A stretch of 24,000 nucleotides of DNA from Parolsenella massiliensis. Its GTDB lineage: Bacteria; Actinomycetota; Coriobacteriia; Coriobacteriales; Atopobiaceae. The stretch spans positions 75,111 to 99,110 of the forward strand of contig NZ_LT671675.1 in the NCBI RefSeq assembly GCF_900143685.1, read 5' to 3'. A program made the position numbers and the translations under genes. Of the stretch, positions 12,908 to 22,106 are shown in pieces. The notes beneath the pieces are model-generated. The model made no database searches, had not been told where the DNA came from, and saw nothing but the letters and a program-made list of their open reading frames with translations. The stretch's first letter is position 1; every line of letters begins with the position of its first letter.

Positions 12908-13360
12908 TGCCTAGGAGCGATGTTCGTTCGGTTGTGGTTGGAATGCTTCTCTTCCGCGGTGCTGTCGTCCGGGGTCCGGCATCTGTCGTTCGCCTCTTCT
13001 GTCGTGTTTGATGTTGTGTGTTATGCGAGCGACCTTGCGCGGGCCTGCCGGCCCGTTGCCCCAGGTGCACCCGGGTAAATGGTACCCATCCGTTGGAACA
13101 TGGACATCGCGGGAGGGCTGTTTGGGCAAGCTAGGATGGATGAGCGGCGGGGTTCTAAATGCAATAATTCGAGCTAAAGGGCCTTGTACTCTCTTTTGTA
13201 AAACGCGAGGGTGCAATAAACTCGACGATCCCCCTGAACCTTTTCTGAACGAATCAGCTCTTAGGCGGTATGACGCGACACGCATCGGTAGTGCTCGGAC
13301 TGGGTTAGTCATCGAGTGGGTATAGAACATACGTTCTGTATAACGTTATAGCACCAGGTG

Positions 13361-13417: not shown

Positions 13418-13837
13418 TCAATGACCGCGATGCTTCTGTTTGCGCTTCAGTTTTCGCTGCTCGAAGCGCGCCTCCGCCTCATCCGCTCGACGCTGGCTTC
13501 TTGCTTGAGCCGATTCCCGCTTCATCGCTTCTCTCTGTGCCACGAGCGCCTGCTGCGCCTTTGTGCTCATCGCGGGCCGCTTGAGGGCTTTCGCCGCCTC
13601 GCGGGCGCGTCTCTTGGGGTTCTTCGCGGGCTCGCTCGCCTCGGACGGATCGTCACCGAAGAACGCGAGCTTCGCCCATTTGCTTGTAACGAATCGCAGG
13701 ATCTCCTCATCGGACGGTTCTGCGCCGAAGACGATGCGGGCGACGCCGTACCTGCCGTCCTCGACATGCTCCGCCAGCCCGACCCAGAATTGGCCGTCGT
13801 GATATACGGTCAGGGTGGACGACACGCTGATCTGCAT
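13418..13837 (-). CDS. yjdF: YjdF family protein (DUF2992)
   Basis: ORF 13418..13966 trimmed to ATG 13837, with AAAGGAGGAACCAGCC upstream. MQISVSSTLTVYHDGQFWVGLAEHVEDGRYGVARIVFGAEPSDEEILRFV...NPKRRAREAAK...STKAQQAL...KRKQKHRGH matches my recollection of the YjdF/DUF2992 pattern. That pattern is an N-terminal beta-rich core followed by a basic helical tail ending KHRG(R/H). Confidence 0.8.
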   Translation of the reverse strand: MQISVSSTLTVYHDGQFWVGLAEHVEDGRYGVARIVFGAEPSDEEILRFVTSKWAKLAFFGDDPSEASEPAKNPKRRAREAAKALKRPAMSTKAQQALVAQREAMKRESAQARSQRRADEAEARFEQRKLKRKQKHRGH

Positions 13838-13958: not shown

Positions 13959-14071
13959 GCCCGCATTGTAGCACGCGCGGATTCACGATGTTGATTGCCG
14001 GCGCCTAGACGGAGATGAAGGCGGTTCGTCTAGGTCAAGCCGGTCGCTCGTTCATGAAGCGGCCGATTCCC

Positions 14072-14100
14072 TGAAAATAAAAGGCGCCCACGAGGACACC
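14072..14100 (-). terminator. Diverged copy of the 12879..12907 terminator
   Basis: Minus-sense GGUGUCC-UCGU-GGGCGCC, which pairs with two G-U pairs, followed by TTTTATTTTC. It lies within a direct repeat of about 55 bp. Confidence 0.5.
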
Positions 14101-14141
14101 TACAGGCTATCTTCGAACTACTTGGTTGGGGCAGACGGAGG

Positions 14142-14196
14142 AAAAAAATAGGGCAGAATCGCTCTCACGATCCCGCCCCGCAAACCCGAGGGTTTC
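14142..14196 (-). terminator. Hairpin+terminator module, copy 1
   Basis: Minus-sense AAACCC-UC-GGGUUU is followed by a 30-nt GC hairpin (GGGGCGGGAUCG-UGAGAG-CGAUUCUGCCCU) and then AUUUUUUU. It is a paralogue of 14274..14329. Confidence 0.55.
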
Positions 14197-14273
14197 TAAC
14201 TGGCTCCATTATTCCGGGCTTCTCAGTTCTGTCATTGACCCAGGTATCATCCGTCTCCTATAGCGAGTGAATA

Positions 14274-14329
14274 TAAAAATAGGGCAGAGTCGCTTGCGCA
14301 AGTCCGCCCCTAAAACCGTGAAGGTTTTG
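14274..14329 (-). terminator. Hairpin+terminator module, copy 2 (immediately after the abi stop)
   Basis: Minus-sense AAAACC-UUCAC-GGUUUU is followed by a 30-nt GC-rich segment of identical length to copy 1 and then AUUUUUAU. It begins 12 nt after the stop at 14341. Confidence 0.6.
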
Positions 14330-14340
14330 CTATCTGCAGG

Positions 14341-15303
14341 CTATTCTACCAACCCGAGCGATTCTGTCAACCTGCGAAGGAACTCGAGCGCGGAGCGAGC
14401 TGCGGCGTCGGGCCCCTTGTCGGGCAGCGCCTCGGTTTCGCCGTCGGCCCTGGCGAACATCTCGGCGAGCTCGGATGCGGCGCGCGAGCGCGAGGAGCCC
14501 TCGGGTACCAAGCCGGAGTGCGCCACGAGCACGGTCGCGACCTCCTGCATGGCCGTATTCCCCATCCACTTCCTCCTGGTCGCCTTGGGAATCCCCACGG
14601 CGGCGACCCTTCGGGAGACGCCGCTGGACGCCGAGCCCCGGGCGGCGCCCCTCTCGGCGAAGCAGTTGATCAGGCACGAGCCGTGCGCGGCGCAGTTGCG
14701 GACGGACTTCACGCGCTTGAGGTCGTAGTGGGAGGCCTCGAGGCGCCTGTCGCCCCATCGCCTGGCGCAGAAGCGCACGAAGTCGATGAGGGTGCCGAAC
14801 GAGGTGAGCTCAAGGAAGGCCCAGGCAGGCATGTCGCCGGAGTACTTCGCGTAGAGGCTCGAGCTGTAGGGGCTGCGGCCGCTCATCTTGAGCTCGCGCA
14901 GGCGGTACTCCCTGTTTGCAGTGGTAAGCGATGCCATGTAGTCGGCCACGATGGCGTAGCCGTCCTCTCCACGGTCCTCCATCTCGCGAAGCAGTGTCAC
15001 CTTCTGGAAGTGCTCGATGTCGAGCGTCATGCCGAGCAGGGCGTGGCGCAGCTCCTGGTCGAGCGCCGCGAGCAGGCGCAGCTGGCCGAAGTCGAGGTCT
15101 ACGTAGCGGCCGTCGCGCGGGCCTCCCTCGTATTTCGAGAAGAGTTTGCGGTAGGATGCGAGCTTGAAGAAGTTGCACTTGTCGCGCAGGTAGTCCGCGG
15201 CCTCTTCCTCGGAACACAGTTCGAAGGCTACGCCCTTCTGCTTGAGGTGCTCTATCTGCTGCTCGATCGTGAGGATCGGCTTCCTATCGTTGGGTTCGGC
15301 CAT
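14341..15303 (-). CDS. Abi_2 family (AbiD/AbiF-like) abortive infection protein, HEPN-type
   Basis: 320 aa with GACAGGAGACCGAGC upstream of the ATG. The N-terminus KPILTIEQQIEHLKQKGV and the overall layout are typical of Abi_2. RNCAAH (in LKRVKSVRNCAAHGSCLIN) is an R-x4-H HEPN motif. Confidence 0.88.
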   Translation of the reverse strand: MAEPNDRKPILTIEQQIEHLKQKGVAFELCSEEEAADYLRDKCNFFKLASYRKLFSKYEGGPRDGRYVDLDFGQLRLLAALDQELRHALLGMTLDIEHFQKVTLLREMEDRGEDGYAIVADYMASLTTANREYRLRELKMSGRSPYSSSLYAKYSGDMPAWAFLELTSFGTLIDFVRFCARRWGDRRLEASHYDLKRVKSVRNCAAHGSCLINCFAERGAARGSASSGVSRRVAAVGIPKATRRKWMGNTAMQEVATVLVAHSGLVPEGSSRSRAASELAEMFARADGETEALPDKGPDAAARSALEFLRRLTESLGLVE

Positions 15304-15335
15304 GCTCGGTCTCCTGTCATTGATTTGAGAATCCT

Positions 15336-15344
15336 ATTCTACCA
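15336..15344 (-). promoter_or_regulatory. Extended -10 promoter element for abi (TGGTAGAAT)
   Basis: Minus-sense TGGTAGAAT lies 32 nt upstream of the abi ATG. There is no good -35, which is consistent with an extended -10 type promoter. Confidence 0.4.
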
Positions 15345-15460
15345 GCATGTTTGCCCTGAATCCTGAAGGCCCGTTCGCCAACTCATAAGCAAGCCACCTG
15401 AGACTACTCACTTTGTTCACGAATGGCGAAGACCTGCGACCTGGGGTTTTGCAAATGGCG

Positions 15461-15509
15461 CGCAAGCCACCCGCGTTAATTCACTTGCGATTGCAGCTGG
15501 CGGCTTGCG
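15461..15509 (-). other. Long stem-loop built on the GCAAGCCACC repeat family
   Basis: (C)GCAAGCCACC at 15461..15471 pairs with GGCGGCTTGC(G) at 15499..15509. The single irregular position is A-C in plus-sense RNA but G-U in minus-sense RNA. Related copies lie at 15389..15425 and 16142..16165. Confidence 0.5.
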
Positions 15510-15878
15510 GGCAAAAGGGCGGTTGAGTTTCAAAACGGGCGTTTTCGGCGCCATCGAGCATCCAAAGGCGACCCGCCGCGCACTTTGGGACAAAAACAAA
15601 AACTCAAAGCCCTGAGTTTGAAAAAAGTTTTTGAGGTTGTCCCAGCTTTTGTCCCCGAAGCCGACGAAACGCGACATCGCGTCATTCGGCGGCACGCGTT
15701 CCGTGTCGATGCCGAAAACTGGGTGTAACTGGAGTGACGGGACGGAAGAACCGACGCCATCGAGTGGGAGTAGCGGGAACTGGCTTCTGAACTCGCGTTT
15801 TGGTGCTGCCGAGTACCGCCTGATACCGTTTCGGCATCGCCGCAGGACAAAGCCACCAGCGAAATAGTGGGAATAACG

Positions 15879-15913
15879 GCCTCCGAACCATCTGGTTCGG
15901 AGGCTTTCTTTTT
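15879..15913 (+). terminator. Strong rho-independent terminator
   Basis: GCCTCCGAACC-ATCT-GGTTCGGAGGC, an 11-bp perfect stem, followed by TTTCTTTTT. Confidence 0.8.
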
Positions 15914-16019: not shown

Positions 16020-16222
16020 CACAATTCGGGTCCCCCCGAGGGCCGATTTAGAAAAGTCGGGATGCCGGCGGGGGGGCAGCCTGTACGATTCGTTAGCTAG
16101 GAGGCGGGAAAAGTGATTCCATTAGCTCTTGGATGTGAGCCCGCAAGCCACTTGCGACAAAGGCAGTTTTTGAAAATTACCAAAATCGTGAGCACAAATA
16201 GAAAGACCCTTTTTCTTGAACT

Positions 16223-16266
16223 GAACGGCCTCCCATTTCTTGGACATGAGAAATGGGAGGCCGTTC
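16223..16266 (-). terminator. 18-bp perfect hairpin downstream of the histidine kinase gene
   Basis: GAACGGCCTCCCATTTCT-8 nt-AGAAATGGGAGGCCGTTC, 38 nt after the stop at 16304. There is no U-tract. Confidence 0.5.
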
Positions 16267-16303
16267 AAACGCGCACGGGGTCCCTTTCCTTTTAATGGTT
16301 GGT

Positions 16304-17443
16304 TTACGCTGCGGTCTGTTTTGGAAGGGTCGCGAGCATGGTGGTCCCGTTTTCGGAACTCGTTTCGACCTCTACCGTGCCACCGTGAAGCGCTGCGATT
16401 TCCCAAACAAGCGCCAGCCCGAGTCCTGCGCCGCCGTATGCCCTGCTGCGGGATTTATCCAGGCGAAAGAACGGCTGGAAGATGCTCTCACGGTACTGCT
16501 TGGGTATTCCCGGTCCCTGATCCTCGACTCGCAGGAACACGTGGCTGTCGTTGTCGCAGATGGAGATGTTGACAGTCGAGCCGGGGCGGCTGTAACGGAT
16601 GGCATTTTCGACCAGGTTAGACACCAGCCGATAGAGGAGCATGTCGCTTCCGATTATCCGAGCGCCTCCACTGCAATTGAGGACAATGTCTTTATGCTCA
16701 GCAAGCGGAGCGAGGTCGGTGAGGACTTCTTCGGACAAGGGGCCAAGCTCGATATCGTCCTTGCAGGGAACGCTGCGGAGCTCACTCATCTCAAGCAGCA
16801 CCTTGGTCATTCGCGACATCCGCTCGGTTTGTTCTTGTAGCAGGCCTAGCAACTCGGCTGTTTCGGGTTGCAAATTGGGGTGCTCGGAGATGAATAGTTC
16901 AATCTGCGCCTGCATAAGGGCGAGCGGGGTGCGCAGCTCGTGTGCGGCGTTGCCGGTAAACTGTTGTTGCGAAGAGAACCCTTCGCCAAGGCGGGCGATC
17001 ATATCGTTGAAAGAGGCGCTGCATCGTTGCAGTTCGGTGGGAACATCTTCGCTGAGTTTGATTTCGCTTAGGTTGTCAGGCTGCACGCGCTCTACTTGAG
17101 CGGCAAAAGCCCGTAGCGGCTTGAGCGCGCGACCGCTCACAAAATATGTCAGCACGCCACCAAGTAGCGTGACTCCAGCCGTGATACACCAGGCTGTCGC
17201 GCCAAAAGACTCCTGTGCGTCGTTTACGACGACCGTGACCTCGTCATTGAGGGCCACGTTCGTTGGGTCAAACGCCTGGGGCGAATCCACGCCGGCAGCG
17301 TTAAGGGCCGAGATGTCGCTGCCGATGGCATCCATGTAGTGCATGCCCGTATAGCCGACCAGGCAGTTCGTCAGCACGCACACCGCACACGTCAGCAGTG
17401 CCGTCATGATCGTTATGCGCCATTGCAGCGAAAGCCCTTTCAT
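16304..17443 (-). CDS. Sensor histidine kinase (two TM, HAMP, HisKA, HATPase_c)
   Basis: H-box NAAHELRTPL and G-boxes GGAGLGLALV. The two N-terminal TM helices flank a loop of about 55 aa. The start overlaps the response-regulator stop in ATGA. Confidence 0.9.
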   Translation of the reverse strand: MKGLSLQWRITIMTALLTCAVCVLTNCLVGYTGMHYMDAIGSDISALNAAGVDSPQAFDPTNVALNDEVTVVVNDAQESFGATAWCITAGVTLLGGVLTYFVSGRALKPLRAFAAQVERVQPDNLSEIKLSEDVPTELQRCSASFNDMIARLGEGFSSQQQFTGNAAHELRTPLALMQAQIELFISEHPNLQPETAELLGLLQEQTERMSRMTKVLLEMSELRSVPCKDDIELGPLSEEVLTDLAPLAEHKDIVLNCSGGARIIGSDMLLYRLVSNLVENAIRYSRPGSTVNISICDNDSHVFLRVEDQGPGIPKQYRESIFQPFFRLDKSRSRAYGGAGLGLALVWEIAALHGGTVEVETSSENGTTMLATLPKQTAA

Positions 17444-21222: not shown

Positions 21223-21253
21223 GTGACTTATCGGGGATGGGGGAATGCAAGCT

Positions 21254-21280
21254 GTGAACAGGGAGCGCGGCCCTGTTCAC
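21254..21280. terminator. Hairpin between convergent nitroreductase and yjdF remnants
   Basis: GTGAACAGGG-AGCGCGG-CCCTGTTCAC, a 10-bp stem. Confidence 0.45.
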
Positions 21281-21303
21281 GCCAGGACCCATGTTGACGC
21301 CGA

Positions 21304-21470
21304 TCAATGCCCGCGATGCTTCCGCTTGTGTTCCAGCTTCCGCTGCTCGAAGTGCGCTTCCGTCTCGTCCGTGCGACGCCGTACCTTCCGTCCTCGACGT
21401 GCTCCGCCAGCCCGACCCAGAATTGGCCGTCGTGACATGCGGCCAGGGTGGACGACGCGGCGACCTGCAT
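21304..21470 (-). pseudogene. yjdF: yjdF-family pseudogene (internal deletion + frameshift)
   Basis: The N-terminal part MQVAASSTLAACHDGQFWVGLAEHVEDGRYGVAR and the C-terminal part FEQRKLEHKRKHRGH lie in different frames. DNA alignment to 13418..13837 shows that about 250 bp (equivalent to roughly 13490..13740) is missing. Confidence 0.75.
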
Positions 21471-22106
21471 GGCCAGCTCCTCCTTCATGTGGACGACCAT
21501 GCAGAGAGGGGACGACCAAGGAGGCAGGTTGCCGATGCGGTCTCCCTCGTTTTCCTCGTACCTTTATATGTACGCCGTGATGTTTGAGCATATTAGATAC
21601 ACGCAAGCCAACGGCACTGTCTACCTGCATGAACGAAAAGAATGTGCCGTCCTGCTCCATTGGGAGAACAACGGCATCGTACTGATGGGGGTCGTGCGTC
21701 GGGCTGACGGGGGTCTTTTGCTTCGGGAGCAGAACGCCAAAAGAATGCGCTCATAGTGGAGTCATGCGGTCTCGGGCGCGCTCACGAGCGCTTCACGAGG
21801 ACGTTTTATGAGCTAGAGCACCTGGCGATGATTGCTATCGGTTGGAGCTTTTCCCACGGCCTGCGGGCAATATTCCTGAGCTCGCGGACCGTGGGCAGGG
21901 TTGAAAACCACCCGGTATCTTCCTGGCTGGATCTCTCTTGGCGTCTTCGGTCTTTCGAATCCTTTGGTTGGGTCGAAAAGGGCGCCGTACCCCGGATCTC
22001 GAAGTACGGCGCCGCGTTCAGATCGCGTTGCCGCCTATGGCTCCCGCTCGGGGCGAGTGGTCATCTACGCCTGCCCGCAGGGACCGGAGAATCTTCACGA
22101 TGATAG

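Follow-up and report, generated by a model that had tools for sequence, protein, structure and literature searches.

Introduction

AbiF–non-coding RNA (ncRNA) systems were recognised only in 2025 and are likely ancestors of Cas13. AbiF proteins act as type III toxins that an ncRNA neutralises by binding them directly, and the papers on them place this partner RNA, the abiF motif RF03085, upstream of the gene (PMC12373285, PMC12737573, PMC13064643). A related gene, abi, was analysed here within a 24,000-nucleotide (nt) stretch of the Parolsenella massiliensis contig NZ_LT671675.1 (RefSeq assembly GCF_900143685.1, positions 75,111 to 99,110 of the forward strand), which is called the window throughout and supplies all coordinates unless a comparison locus is named; abi is followed on its own strand by two similar RNA-like modules, the proximal one termed module 2 and the distal one module 1. 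A first-pass annotation, made from the letters of the window and a list of its open reading frames (ORFs), had proposed that abi uses a cis-encoded RNA as its partner, and comparative genomics bore this out for the abi-proximal downstream module and not for the other two RNA candidates. We consider it rather probable that the locus is a two-gene toxin/RNA module, made up of an AbiF-like HEPN toxin and a 3'-encoded RNA transcribed from a promoter embedded in the toxin gene. AbiF-type toxin–RNA systems are already known; the layout with a downstream RNA and an embedded promoter looks new.

AbiF/AbiFr (PbAbiF, PDB 8VZ6; Zilberzwige-Tal et al. 2025, summarised in PMC12737573 and PMC12373285) resembles the window locus in belonging to the Abi_2 family, in its R-x4-H HEPN motif and in having a single toxin gene beside a small structured RNA on mobile DNA; unlike AbiF/AbiFr, the window has its RNA downstream, with a predicted promoter inside the coding sequence (CDS) and two hairpins, the second of which would double as terminator. 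AbiFCd/RCd22 of the C. difficile prophage phi027 and phage phiC2 (PMC12373285) is of the same protein family (23% protein identity to the window Abi, HEPN residues R202/H207 in both), has a toxin-adjacent small RNA (sRNA) with its own sigma-A-type promoter and terminator that is also co-transcribed with the toxin, and may likewise have two RNA units per locus. Unlike the window RNA, RCd22 is situated in the 5' leader, and part of its action is through premature termination, a route not open to a 3' RNA. A search with RF03085 returned nothing at E<=10 in 14000-15900 or 14130-14345 and, at gathering score, nothing in 13 divergent abi loci, while the positive control, phage phiC2, gave 37.6 bits upstream of abiF; the consensus CCCGCC-A-AGC...GCU-CAAAUC-GGCGGG is accordingly present in the control and not in the window or the 13 related loci. 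The abi 5' leader is too short for an RNA of the RF03085 type, with the candidate promoter P1 about 34 nt before the ATG and the arm of the surrounding element further upstream. In place of the upstream leader ncRNA of AbiF systems, a conserved RNA lies downstream.

ToxIN, AbiQ/antiQ, CptIN and TenpIN also combine an endoRNase toxin with an adjacent ncRNA, occur on mobile elements and are linked to abortive infection. Their toxins have the ToxN/AbiQ fold, unlike the window Abi, and the classical type III RNA consists of 35-45-nt repeats in a tandem array upstream, is processed by the toxin and is followed by a terminator before the toxin gene, whereas the window family consists of one unit of about 60 nt (sometimes two) downstream. 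The general hallmark of type III toxin–antitoxin systems, a conserved structured ncRNA adjacent to the toxin gene and inherited with it, was found here.

A conserved predicted RNA directly downstream of abi

Module 2 (Table 1) is composed of the leader CAGAUAGC, hairpin 1 (AAAACC-UUCAC-GGUUUU), a single A as linker, hairpin 2 with 13-nt arms and a GCAA tetraloop (30 nt, 13+4+13) and a U-tail. Modules 1 and 2 share a direct repeat that runs ungapped for 43 nt at 79% identity (14144-14186 and 14275-14317); across 114 aligned columns they are 77% identical, and the similarity continues upstream into the promoter region. Their 19-mer core occurs twice in the window, at these sites only, against 0.01 expected, and the folding z-scores were -4.0 for module 2 and -3.4 for module 1. 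The repeat and folding analyses agree with the first-pass description of two modules of about 75% identity, each with a 30-nt GC hairpin of identical length and a U-run. The compensatory change which that description had placed in the small hairpin was not confirmed, as module 1 reads AAACC-CUCG-GGUUU, the same stem minus its outer pair.

Homologues of Abi were fetched at decreasing identity, and comparison loci were given L-numbers. In every homologue checked (87, 73, 67, 65, 59, 54, 51, 48, 47, 46 and 43% identity) the element was located 4-13 nt past the abi stop codon, with the layout CAAAACC-loop-GGUUUU, 1-3-nt linker, 13-nt arm, GNRA loop (GCAA, GAAA or GAGA), 13-nt arm and U-run. The neighbours of the abi–RNA pair varied and included guaA, a relaxase/ArdC pair, a type I restriction enzyme, AbiEii, RelB and an integrase. 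It had been proposed at the outset that the flanks of homologous abi loci be compared, and a conserved, covarying downstream structure was found in all those examined.

For structural comparison 14 sequences were aligned, with padding to put hairpin 2 in register. Pairing was found in 97.4% of alignment cells, compared with 43-59% when the partners were slid, and 6 pairs change on both sides; none of 500 shuffles reached the observed values. There was almost no sequence variation in the stem of hairpin 1 or at the base of hairpin 2, and the conserved bases of the RNA lie mostly in stems, not in an exposed seed. Two wobbles are conserved, G38·U57 (13/14) and U43·G52 (11/14), and they pair in the abi-sense strand only; because a conserved G·U becomes A·C on the opposite strand, the structure is strand-specific. 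A covariance model (CM) built from the alignment, with module 1 outside the training set, scored module 2 at 63.9 bits and module 1 at 52.4 bits and matched only these two sites in the 24 kb window. After phage Abi_2 genes of 30-36% identity its matches were weaker (23-27 bits), with 22.9 bits in an Evtepia/NatCom phage whose Abi is 33% identical. The phage versions keep AAAACC..GGUUUU or the flipped pair AAAAGC..GCUUUU, followed by a GC hairpin and a U-run, and the phage abi gene ends carry a TTGACA/TTGACT promoter.

Linkage to Abi was also seen when the RNA was used as the query. The pattern CAAAACC..GGTTTT..GGGGCGG had 4 matches in 2.9 million viral contigs, each directly 3' of an Abi_2 homologue; a second scan of viral contigs with another linker pattern found no copy. 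A looser pattern, which covers only the AC/UAC-linker class (the window module has an A linker), gave 79 matches in metagenomes, of which 27 had a complete hairpin 2 and U-tail. An Abi homologue detectable by tblastn was present just upstream of 24/27 complete matches, and its best segment stopped 14-18 nt before the module in 23 of the 24 (352 nt before it in L180); the remaining complete matches were two at contig ends and L145, which has a degraded abi end only. The other 52 matches lacked the 3' arm and were attributed to chance. Judged from these comparisons, the element is better conserved than the protein, and module 2 is strongly supported as the real partner of abi.

A predicted promoter within the last codons of abi

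P2, a sigma-70-type promoter candidate (TTGACA-16-TAGAAT with a TG extension), scored 11/12 plus TG in a consensus scan and had been overlooked in the first-pass annotation. It ends 13 nt before the conserved CAAAACC that opens hairpin 1 of module 2, and transcription from it is predicted to start near 14336. By its sequence alone, then, module 2 is matched with a promoter-like P2 and with a terminator hairpin and U-run of its own. Homologues with identities as low as 43% retain TTGAC(A/G)-16/17-TAnAnT with TGn at the P2 site, and phage homologues of 30-33% identity have TTGACT/TTGACA versions. Among 13 divergent homologues the -35 was always TTG-AC(A/G) or a one-base variant, and the first two bases of the -10 (TA) were supplied by an NTA codon (GTA, CTA, TTA or ATA) in 13/13; such codons are rare (1-3% of codons in those abi genes), and the residue encoded varies between V, L and I. 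Where the protein is 2 residues longer (L099) or 1 shorter (L094), the distance of P2 to the RNA is fixed and that to the stop codon is not. Since the -35, spacing and -10 are kept, the rare NTA codon recurs with a varying residue and the spacing is tied to the RNA, P2 appears to be selected at the DNA level.

Upstream of abi, the extended -10 that the first-pass annotation had assigned to the gene (P1) is present and conserved, TGGTAnAAT being kept about 35 nt ahead of the ATG in L091-L097 (65-87% identity). More distant homologues have a TATAAT- or TACAAT-like hexamer at this position, with none evident in L103.

An architectural parallel to module 2 and P2 was found in S. aureus, where Sau-5971/RsaL (Rfam RF02397) starts 11 nt past the stop codon of an Abi_2 homologue on the same strand (117 bits, L190 1856-1951, the S. 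aureus phage-labelled contig OR844992). This staphylococcal homologue is 31% identical to the window Abi and matches Pfam Abi_2, and its gene ends with TTGACT-17-TAAACT overlapping the stop codon. One study counts Sau-5971/RsaL among the bona fide sRNAs validated by Northern blot (PMC5826253), and another reports it to be highly expressed, from the 3' untranslated region (UTR) of SA0355 (PMC3386247). Unlike the window RNA it is 96 nt long, AT-rich and made up of three hairpins, and no link between Sau-5971 and Abi was found in the literature searched. As a separate observation, a weak Spy779816-like match lies about 150 nt past an Abi_2 gene ending TTGACA-17-TACTAT in Streptococcus phage Javan427 (L188).

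Module 2 might instead be just the terminator or 3' UTR of abi, perhaps with an mRNA-stabilising effect, its conservation being due to horizontal spread and the promoter being a by-product of the C-terminal peptide. Hairpin 2 with its U-run is indeed a textbook terminator, the cassette recurs with hardly any change in about 100 genomes from several genera, and the peptide LTxSLGLL is conserved at the protein level. Between proteins of 43-87% identity, however, a terminator would not normally keep its sequence, whereas here hardly any change is seen in hairpin 1, the linker or the base of hairpin 2, and termination does not need hairpin 1. A peptide by-product would also not explain the NTA codon at the -10 in 13/13 homologues with differing residues, or a spacing that follows the RNA when the stop codon shifts. 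Orphan copies of the RNA without abi keep the promoter-like part, and the S. aureus counterpart accumulates as an sRNA (PMC5826253). We give this explanation a small chance of being correct.

A different alternative accepts the RNA as real and assigns it another role, either as a cis-acting 3' control element of the abi mRNA or as a base-pairing sRNA acting in trans on host, element or phage transcripts. It gains from the fact that regulatory sRNAs derived from 3' UTRs are common and that the RNA belongs to the abi mRNA as well as to a possible separate transcript. Complementarity to the abi 5' UTR and start region was, however, not consistent in the nine loci compared (z -2.2 to +1.1), and an antisense mechanism in which the sRNA would act on the abi 5' UTR was rejected; the concentration of conserved bases in stems also does not fit a seed. 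The strict one-to-one linkage with a relative of an RNA-bound toxin fits a protein-binding RNA better, and such another role is regarded as unlikely, though with an appreciable chance.

The Abi protein

The Abi protein matched Pfam Abi_2 (PF07751) with 68.1 bits (E 1.6e-18; gathering cut-off 25.6) and the PADLOC AbiD model with E 9.9e-23. RNCAAH corresponds to residues 202-207 and to the conserved R-phi-x3-H catalytic motif, of which R202, N203, A206 and H207 are invariant among 17 homologues (46-87% identity); the same alignment shows the C-terminal LTxSLGLL peptide kept at the protein level. Pfam, PADLOC and this alignment thus uphold the original assignment of abi as a minus-strand Abi_2/HEPN gene with RNCAAH. 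An AlphaFold2 (AF2) model of Abi had a mean confidence (pLDDT) of 90.2. In a Foldseek search of the model against PDB the chain 8vz6_A (PbAbiF with its ncRNA) was the sole real fold match (prob 1.00, template-modelling (TM) scores 0.58/0.62, 315 columns; runner-up prob 0.08). From the model, Abi is predicted to be an AbiF-like HEPN protein and putative RNase. Because the fold match comes at 14% identity, RF03085 is absent and the 5' leader is short, Abi is a distant AbiF relative whose partner RNA is of a different family and in a different position. The abi CDS has 67% G+C and a G+C content at third codon positions (GC3) of 0.89, from which the immediate flanks differ.

Module 1 and the inter-module stretch

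The window holds two RNA copies 131 nt apart, and most loci hold one. Module 1 is absent from many element copies (L012, L054, L089, L090), and L070 has a single module which is a fusion of 1 and 2. Upstream of module 1 lies an abi 3'-end relic that aligns with the true abi 3' end (TGACAGAA...GGAATAATGGAGCC) and starts exactly at the 14234/14235 recombination junction. The same junction was seen in L019, L074 and L080, where a TfoX_N-domain gene takes this place 3' of module 2 (4088-4396 in L074); the leader of that gene is the inter-module stretch which survives in the window at 14236-14273. Further RNA copies without an intact abi ahead were found in L012 (5340-5400), L103 (3204-3268) and L105 (8558-8616). 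The L012 copy lies about 95 nt past a DUF3800 gene and retains an abi-3'-end-like promoter stretch, the L103 orphan unit likewise retains an abi-3'-end-like stretch, and the L105 copy stands in direct tandem with the first. We read module 1 as an apparent orphan RNA gene remaining after loss of a second abi. Its earlier interpretation as a component of the system was given up, the distal copy being an orphan or relic that many element copies lack.

Two other candidates in this region were rejected. A small inter-module ORF (AGGAGacggATG, MIPGSMTELRSPE) was considered as a type I toxin, and is short and hydrophilic, its first part being the TfoX_N leader. A plus-strand promoter had been proposed to fire antisense through module 2 into the 3' end of abi; the sequence is present, its -10 lacks the conserved final T, and the consensus scan did not report the promoter. 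This antisense promoter is weak, and the region is missing from many element copies and from all divergent loci.

Copies of the element and population variation

An identical Abi protein is encoded by hundreds of human-associated metagenome contigs and by at least 80 genomes from the genera Collinsella, Slackia, Olsenella and Senegalimassilia, and C. aerofaciens ATCC 25986 (L022) is one of the strains with the cassette; a search of a plasmid collection gave no match. The genome scan returned near-identical copies only, which served as the basis of the population analysis and are uninformative on divergence. Nucleotide diversity (pi) was measured among 90 element copies. It was about 0.002 from the abi ATG (about 15300) through the end of module 2 (about 14265), about 0.06 in the arm and P1 region and 0.01-0.03 downstream of module 2. 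Module 2 had a pi of 0.0013, and its core was identical in 91 loci; in module 1 (pi 0.018) 20/55 sites were polymorphic and nine variants occurred, some in stems. Breakpoints of similarity clustered at 14271-14276, 14234/5 and 14077. From the low-diversity block and the clustering of breakpoints, abi and module 2 are taken, on sequence evidence, to move as one unit.

Breakpoints placed exactly at the end of module 2 (14271-14276) and past the third terminator (14077) could also mean that the modules work as DNA and not as RNAs, for example as cassette junctions or as targets of recombination or insertion, and the fusion of modules 1 and 2 in L070 and the IS110-type elements directly past U-tracts in several copies point the same way. 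The conserved G·U pairs, however, would be A·C on the other strand, so that the structure is strand-specific, and the element always occurs in the abi sense, at a fixed distance from the promoter and with a U-run behind it. Homologous recombination between conserved RNA genes and terminator-seeking insertion sequence (IS) elements explain the breakpoints, and a role as DNA sites is very improbable. An integron attC-like site was also considered and rejected, as by reading of the sequence the core-site consensus does not fit.

The upstream arm and the integrative element

Upstream of abi, the first-pass annotation had described a family of GCAAGCCACC repeats and a stem (15461-71 with 15499-509) as a further RNA candidate. 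The repeats and the stem exist, and read in the minus sense the irregular pair of the stem is G·U; an abi-specific RNA they do not form. GCAAGCCACC has 7 matches at <=1 mismatch against 2.4 expected, and 2/100 shuffles reach 7. The arm of roughly 400 nt that contains them, between the att core and abi, has paralogous counterparts of 82-87% identity in L007, L020, L074 and L088, with the repeats kept and other DNA behind, and is absent upstream of abi in L094, L096 and L098-L103. The upstream repeats were rejected as RNA partner, as the arm occurs without abi, is absent at other abi loci and has uncompensated stem mismatches. The idea of RNA modules bracketing abi thus fell away, with the upstream family assigned to the element arm, the antisense promoter weak and the distal module an orphan. 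A long imperfect inverted repeat (TGGGACAAAAACAAAAACT / AGTTTTTGAGGTTGTCCCA) occupies the least variable part of the arm (pi 0.013-0.029). We infer that the arm may hold binding sites of a recombinase or excisionase.

Among about 100 copies similarity stops at 15772-15775 in most loci, and some go further. This boundary coincides with an attachment (att) core that copies the last codons of guaA, whose true 3' end with the att core sequence was found in L080; a GMP synthase gene adjoins the abi homologue in L091 (87% identity). A second copy of the core makes a 16-nt direct repeat (IEWE*/IEWV*) flanking the segment with DUF2992 and abi, an arrangement that points to elements having accumulated in tandem at the 3' end of guaA. 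In L005, L004 and L010 the 3' end of the DUF2992 gene abuts the element boundary. The left 13 kb of the window encode a TraG/VirD4 coupling protein, a VirB4-like ATPase, PrgI, a DnaA/IstB-like ATPase and an HTH_17 excisionase-like protein. On account of the conjugation genes and the similarity boundary at the guaA-derived att core, abi is, by its sequence context, cargo at the distal end of an element, or element pile, integrated at the guaA 3' end.

Several further features were recorded in and around the element. The conjugation genes have a G+C content of about 70%, which falls at about 13000 in the window to about 55% for the remainder. IS110-family insertions (ends AATATGAG..CATTGTCAATAGGCA) lie immediately past terminator U-tracts and appear to target terminator ends (L005 7541-8653; L013, L015, L044 and L059 past the window-equivalent 14077; L025 past 14271). 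An azaaromatic (yjdF) riboswitch (RF01764, 59.9 bits) precedes the DUF2992 gene, and this unit adjoins the abi cassette downstream; the riboswitch also occurs near the abi homologue of the viral contig L105. A degraded second riboswitch/DUF2992 unit, 82-88% identical over about 250 nt and with a weak DUF2992 match, lies further along the window, where Rfam at gathering score called no riboswitch in 21228-21546. A perfect 19-bp inverted repeat with an 8-nt loop follows a histidine kinase gene and is probably a bidirectional terminator. A third intrinsic-terminator-like hairpin downstream of module 1, which had also been overlooked, is listed with the other features in Table 1.

Table 1. Positions of abi, the RNA modules and neighbouring features in the window
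Feature	Position	Strand	Remarks
abi	14341..15303	minus	320 aa, Abi_2/AbiD-F family HEPN protein (translation, profiles)
P1, abi extended -10 TGGTAGAAT	15345->15337	minus	about 34-35 nt before ATG, no good -35
P2, sigma-70 TTGACA-16-TAGAAT + TG extension	14370->14343	minus	candidate promoter within last 10 abi codons, overlaps stop
Module 2	14270..14336	minus	predicted sRNA of about 60 nt, also 3' UTR of abi mRNA
Module 2, hairpin 1	14312-14328	minus	
Module 2, hairpin 2	14281-14310	minus	
Module 2, U-tail	14270-14280	minus	
Plus-strand TTGACC-18-TATAGC	14235..14264	plus	judged not functional
abi 3'-end relic	14208..14235	minus	promoter-like ATGACA-16-AATAAT, 10/12 in scan
Module 1	14142..14202	minus	second, orphan-type RNA copy (CM, fold)
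Module 1, hairpin 1	14182-14195	minus	without outer pair
Module 1, hairpin 2	14150-14179	minus	U-tail next
Third intrinsic-terminator-like hairpin	14101->14082	minus	outside RNA family, without CM match
Element end arm	15376..15757		GCAAGCCACC/GGTGGCTTGC repeats, long inverted repeat; not abi-specific
Arm repeats	15389-98, 15462-71, 15499-508		third copy inverted
Long imperfect inverted repeat of arm	15586-15644		
att core, guaA last codons (..IEWE*), CATCGAGTGGGAGTAG	15758..15773	plus	element boundary
Second att core copy	13310-13325		
Promoter-like TCAACA-18-TACAAT	13994->13965		with riboswitch/DUF2992 unit
Azaaromatic (yjdF) riboswitch RF01764	13859-13961	minus	ahead of DUF2992 gene
DUF2992 gene	13418-13837	minus	
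Degraded second riboswitch/DUF2992 unit	21228-21546	minus	
Inverted repeat	16222-16267		probable bidirectional terminator
Histidine kinase gene	16304-17443	minus	

Discussion

Several points weigh against a toxin/RNA module of the kind proposed here. The conservation of the LTxSLGLL peptide could explain part of the promoter conservation, and hairpin 2 would be needed as a terminator anyway. The structural alignment was a manual one guided by the expected structure, although hairpin 2 does have a fixed length. The identity of Abi to PbAbiF is only 14%, a sequence-profile search of PDB with Abi returned nothing and the link to PbAbiF comes from the fold search only; with RF03085 absent, the analogy with AbiF rests on protein fold and locus logic and not on RNA homology. 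The staphylococcal parallel is architectural only, as Sau-5971 has no detectable sequence similarity to the module and gave no match to the CM, and one paper describes Sau-5971 as processed from a 3' UTR.

We favour the toxin/RNA module, and its working can be outlined as follows. P2 would make the short RNA alone, presumably in excess, and the weaker P1 would make an abi mRNA ending in the same RNA, since hairpin 2 would terminate both transcripts. By analogy with AbiF/AbiFr and AbiFCd/RCd22, the RNA would bind the Abi (HEPN) dimer and keep the nuclease silent. A loss of RNA supply, as could happen when a phage shuts off transcription, the RNA decays or the element itself is lost, would free the nuclease and lead to abortive infection, stabilisation of the element or both. 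The RNA most likely acts as an antitoxin binding Abi, as its counterparts in the AbiF systems do, and on the same analogy we infer that Abi would be toxic and have a role in defence.

On a wider scale, we put forward only tentatively, as somewhat less probable than its opposite, that in a large branch of Abi_2/AbiF proteins, spread over integrative elements of Coriobacteriia, human-gut phages and possibly staphylococci, the partner RNA belongs to a second class not described before, which is 3'-encoded and has its promoter in the last codons of the toxin. If this is true, there would be a new RNA family to model, and surveys that look only upstream or only for RF03085 would miss the RNA partner of many Abi_2 genes. 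Sau-5971/RsaL, a long-known sRNA of S. aureus, would gain a testable function as an Abi antitoxin, and HEPN–RNA partnerships of the kind thought to precede Cas13 would have arisen or been rearranged more than once. The antitoxin promoter would constrain the C-terminal codons of the toxin and so couple the two genes that their separation is hard, and a conjugative element common in gut bacteria (Collinsella, Slackia, Olsenella, Senegalimassilia) would be credited with a definite module for defence or addiction.

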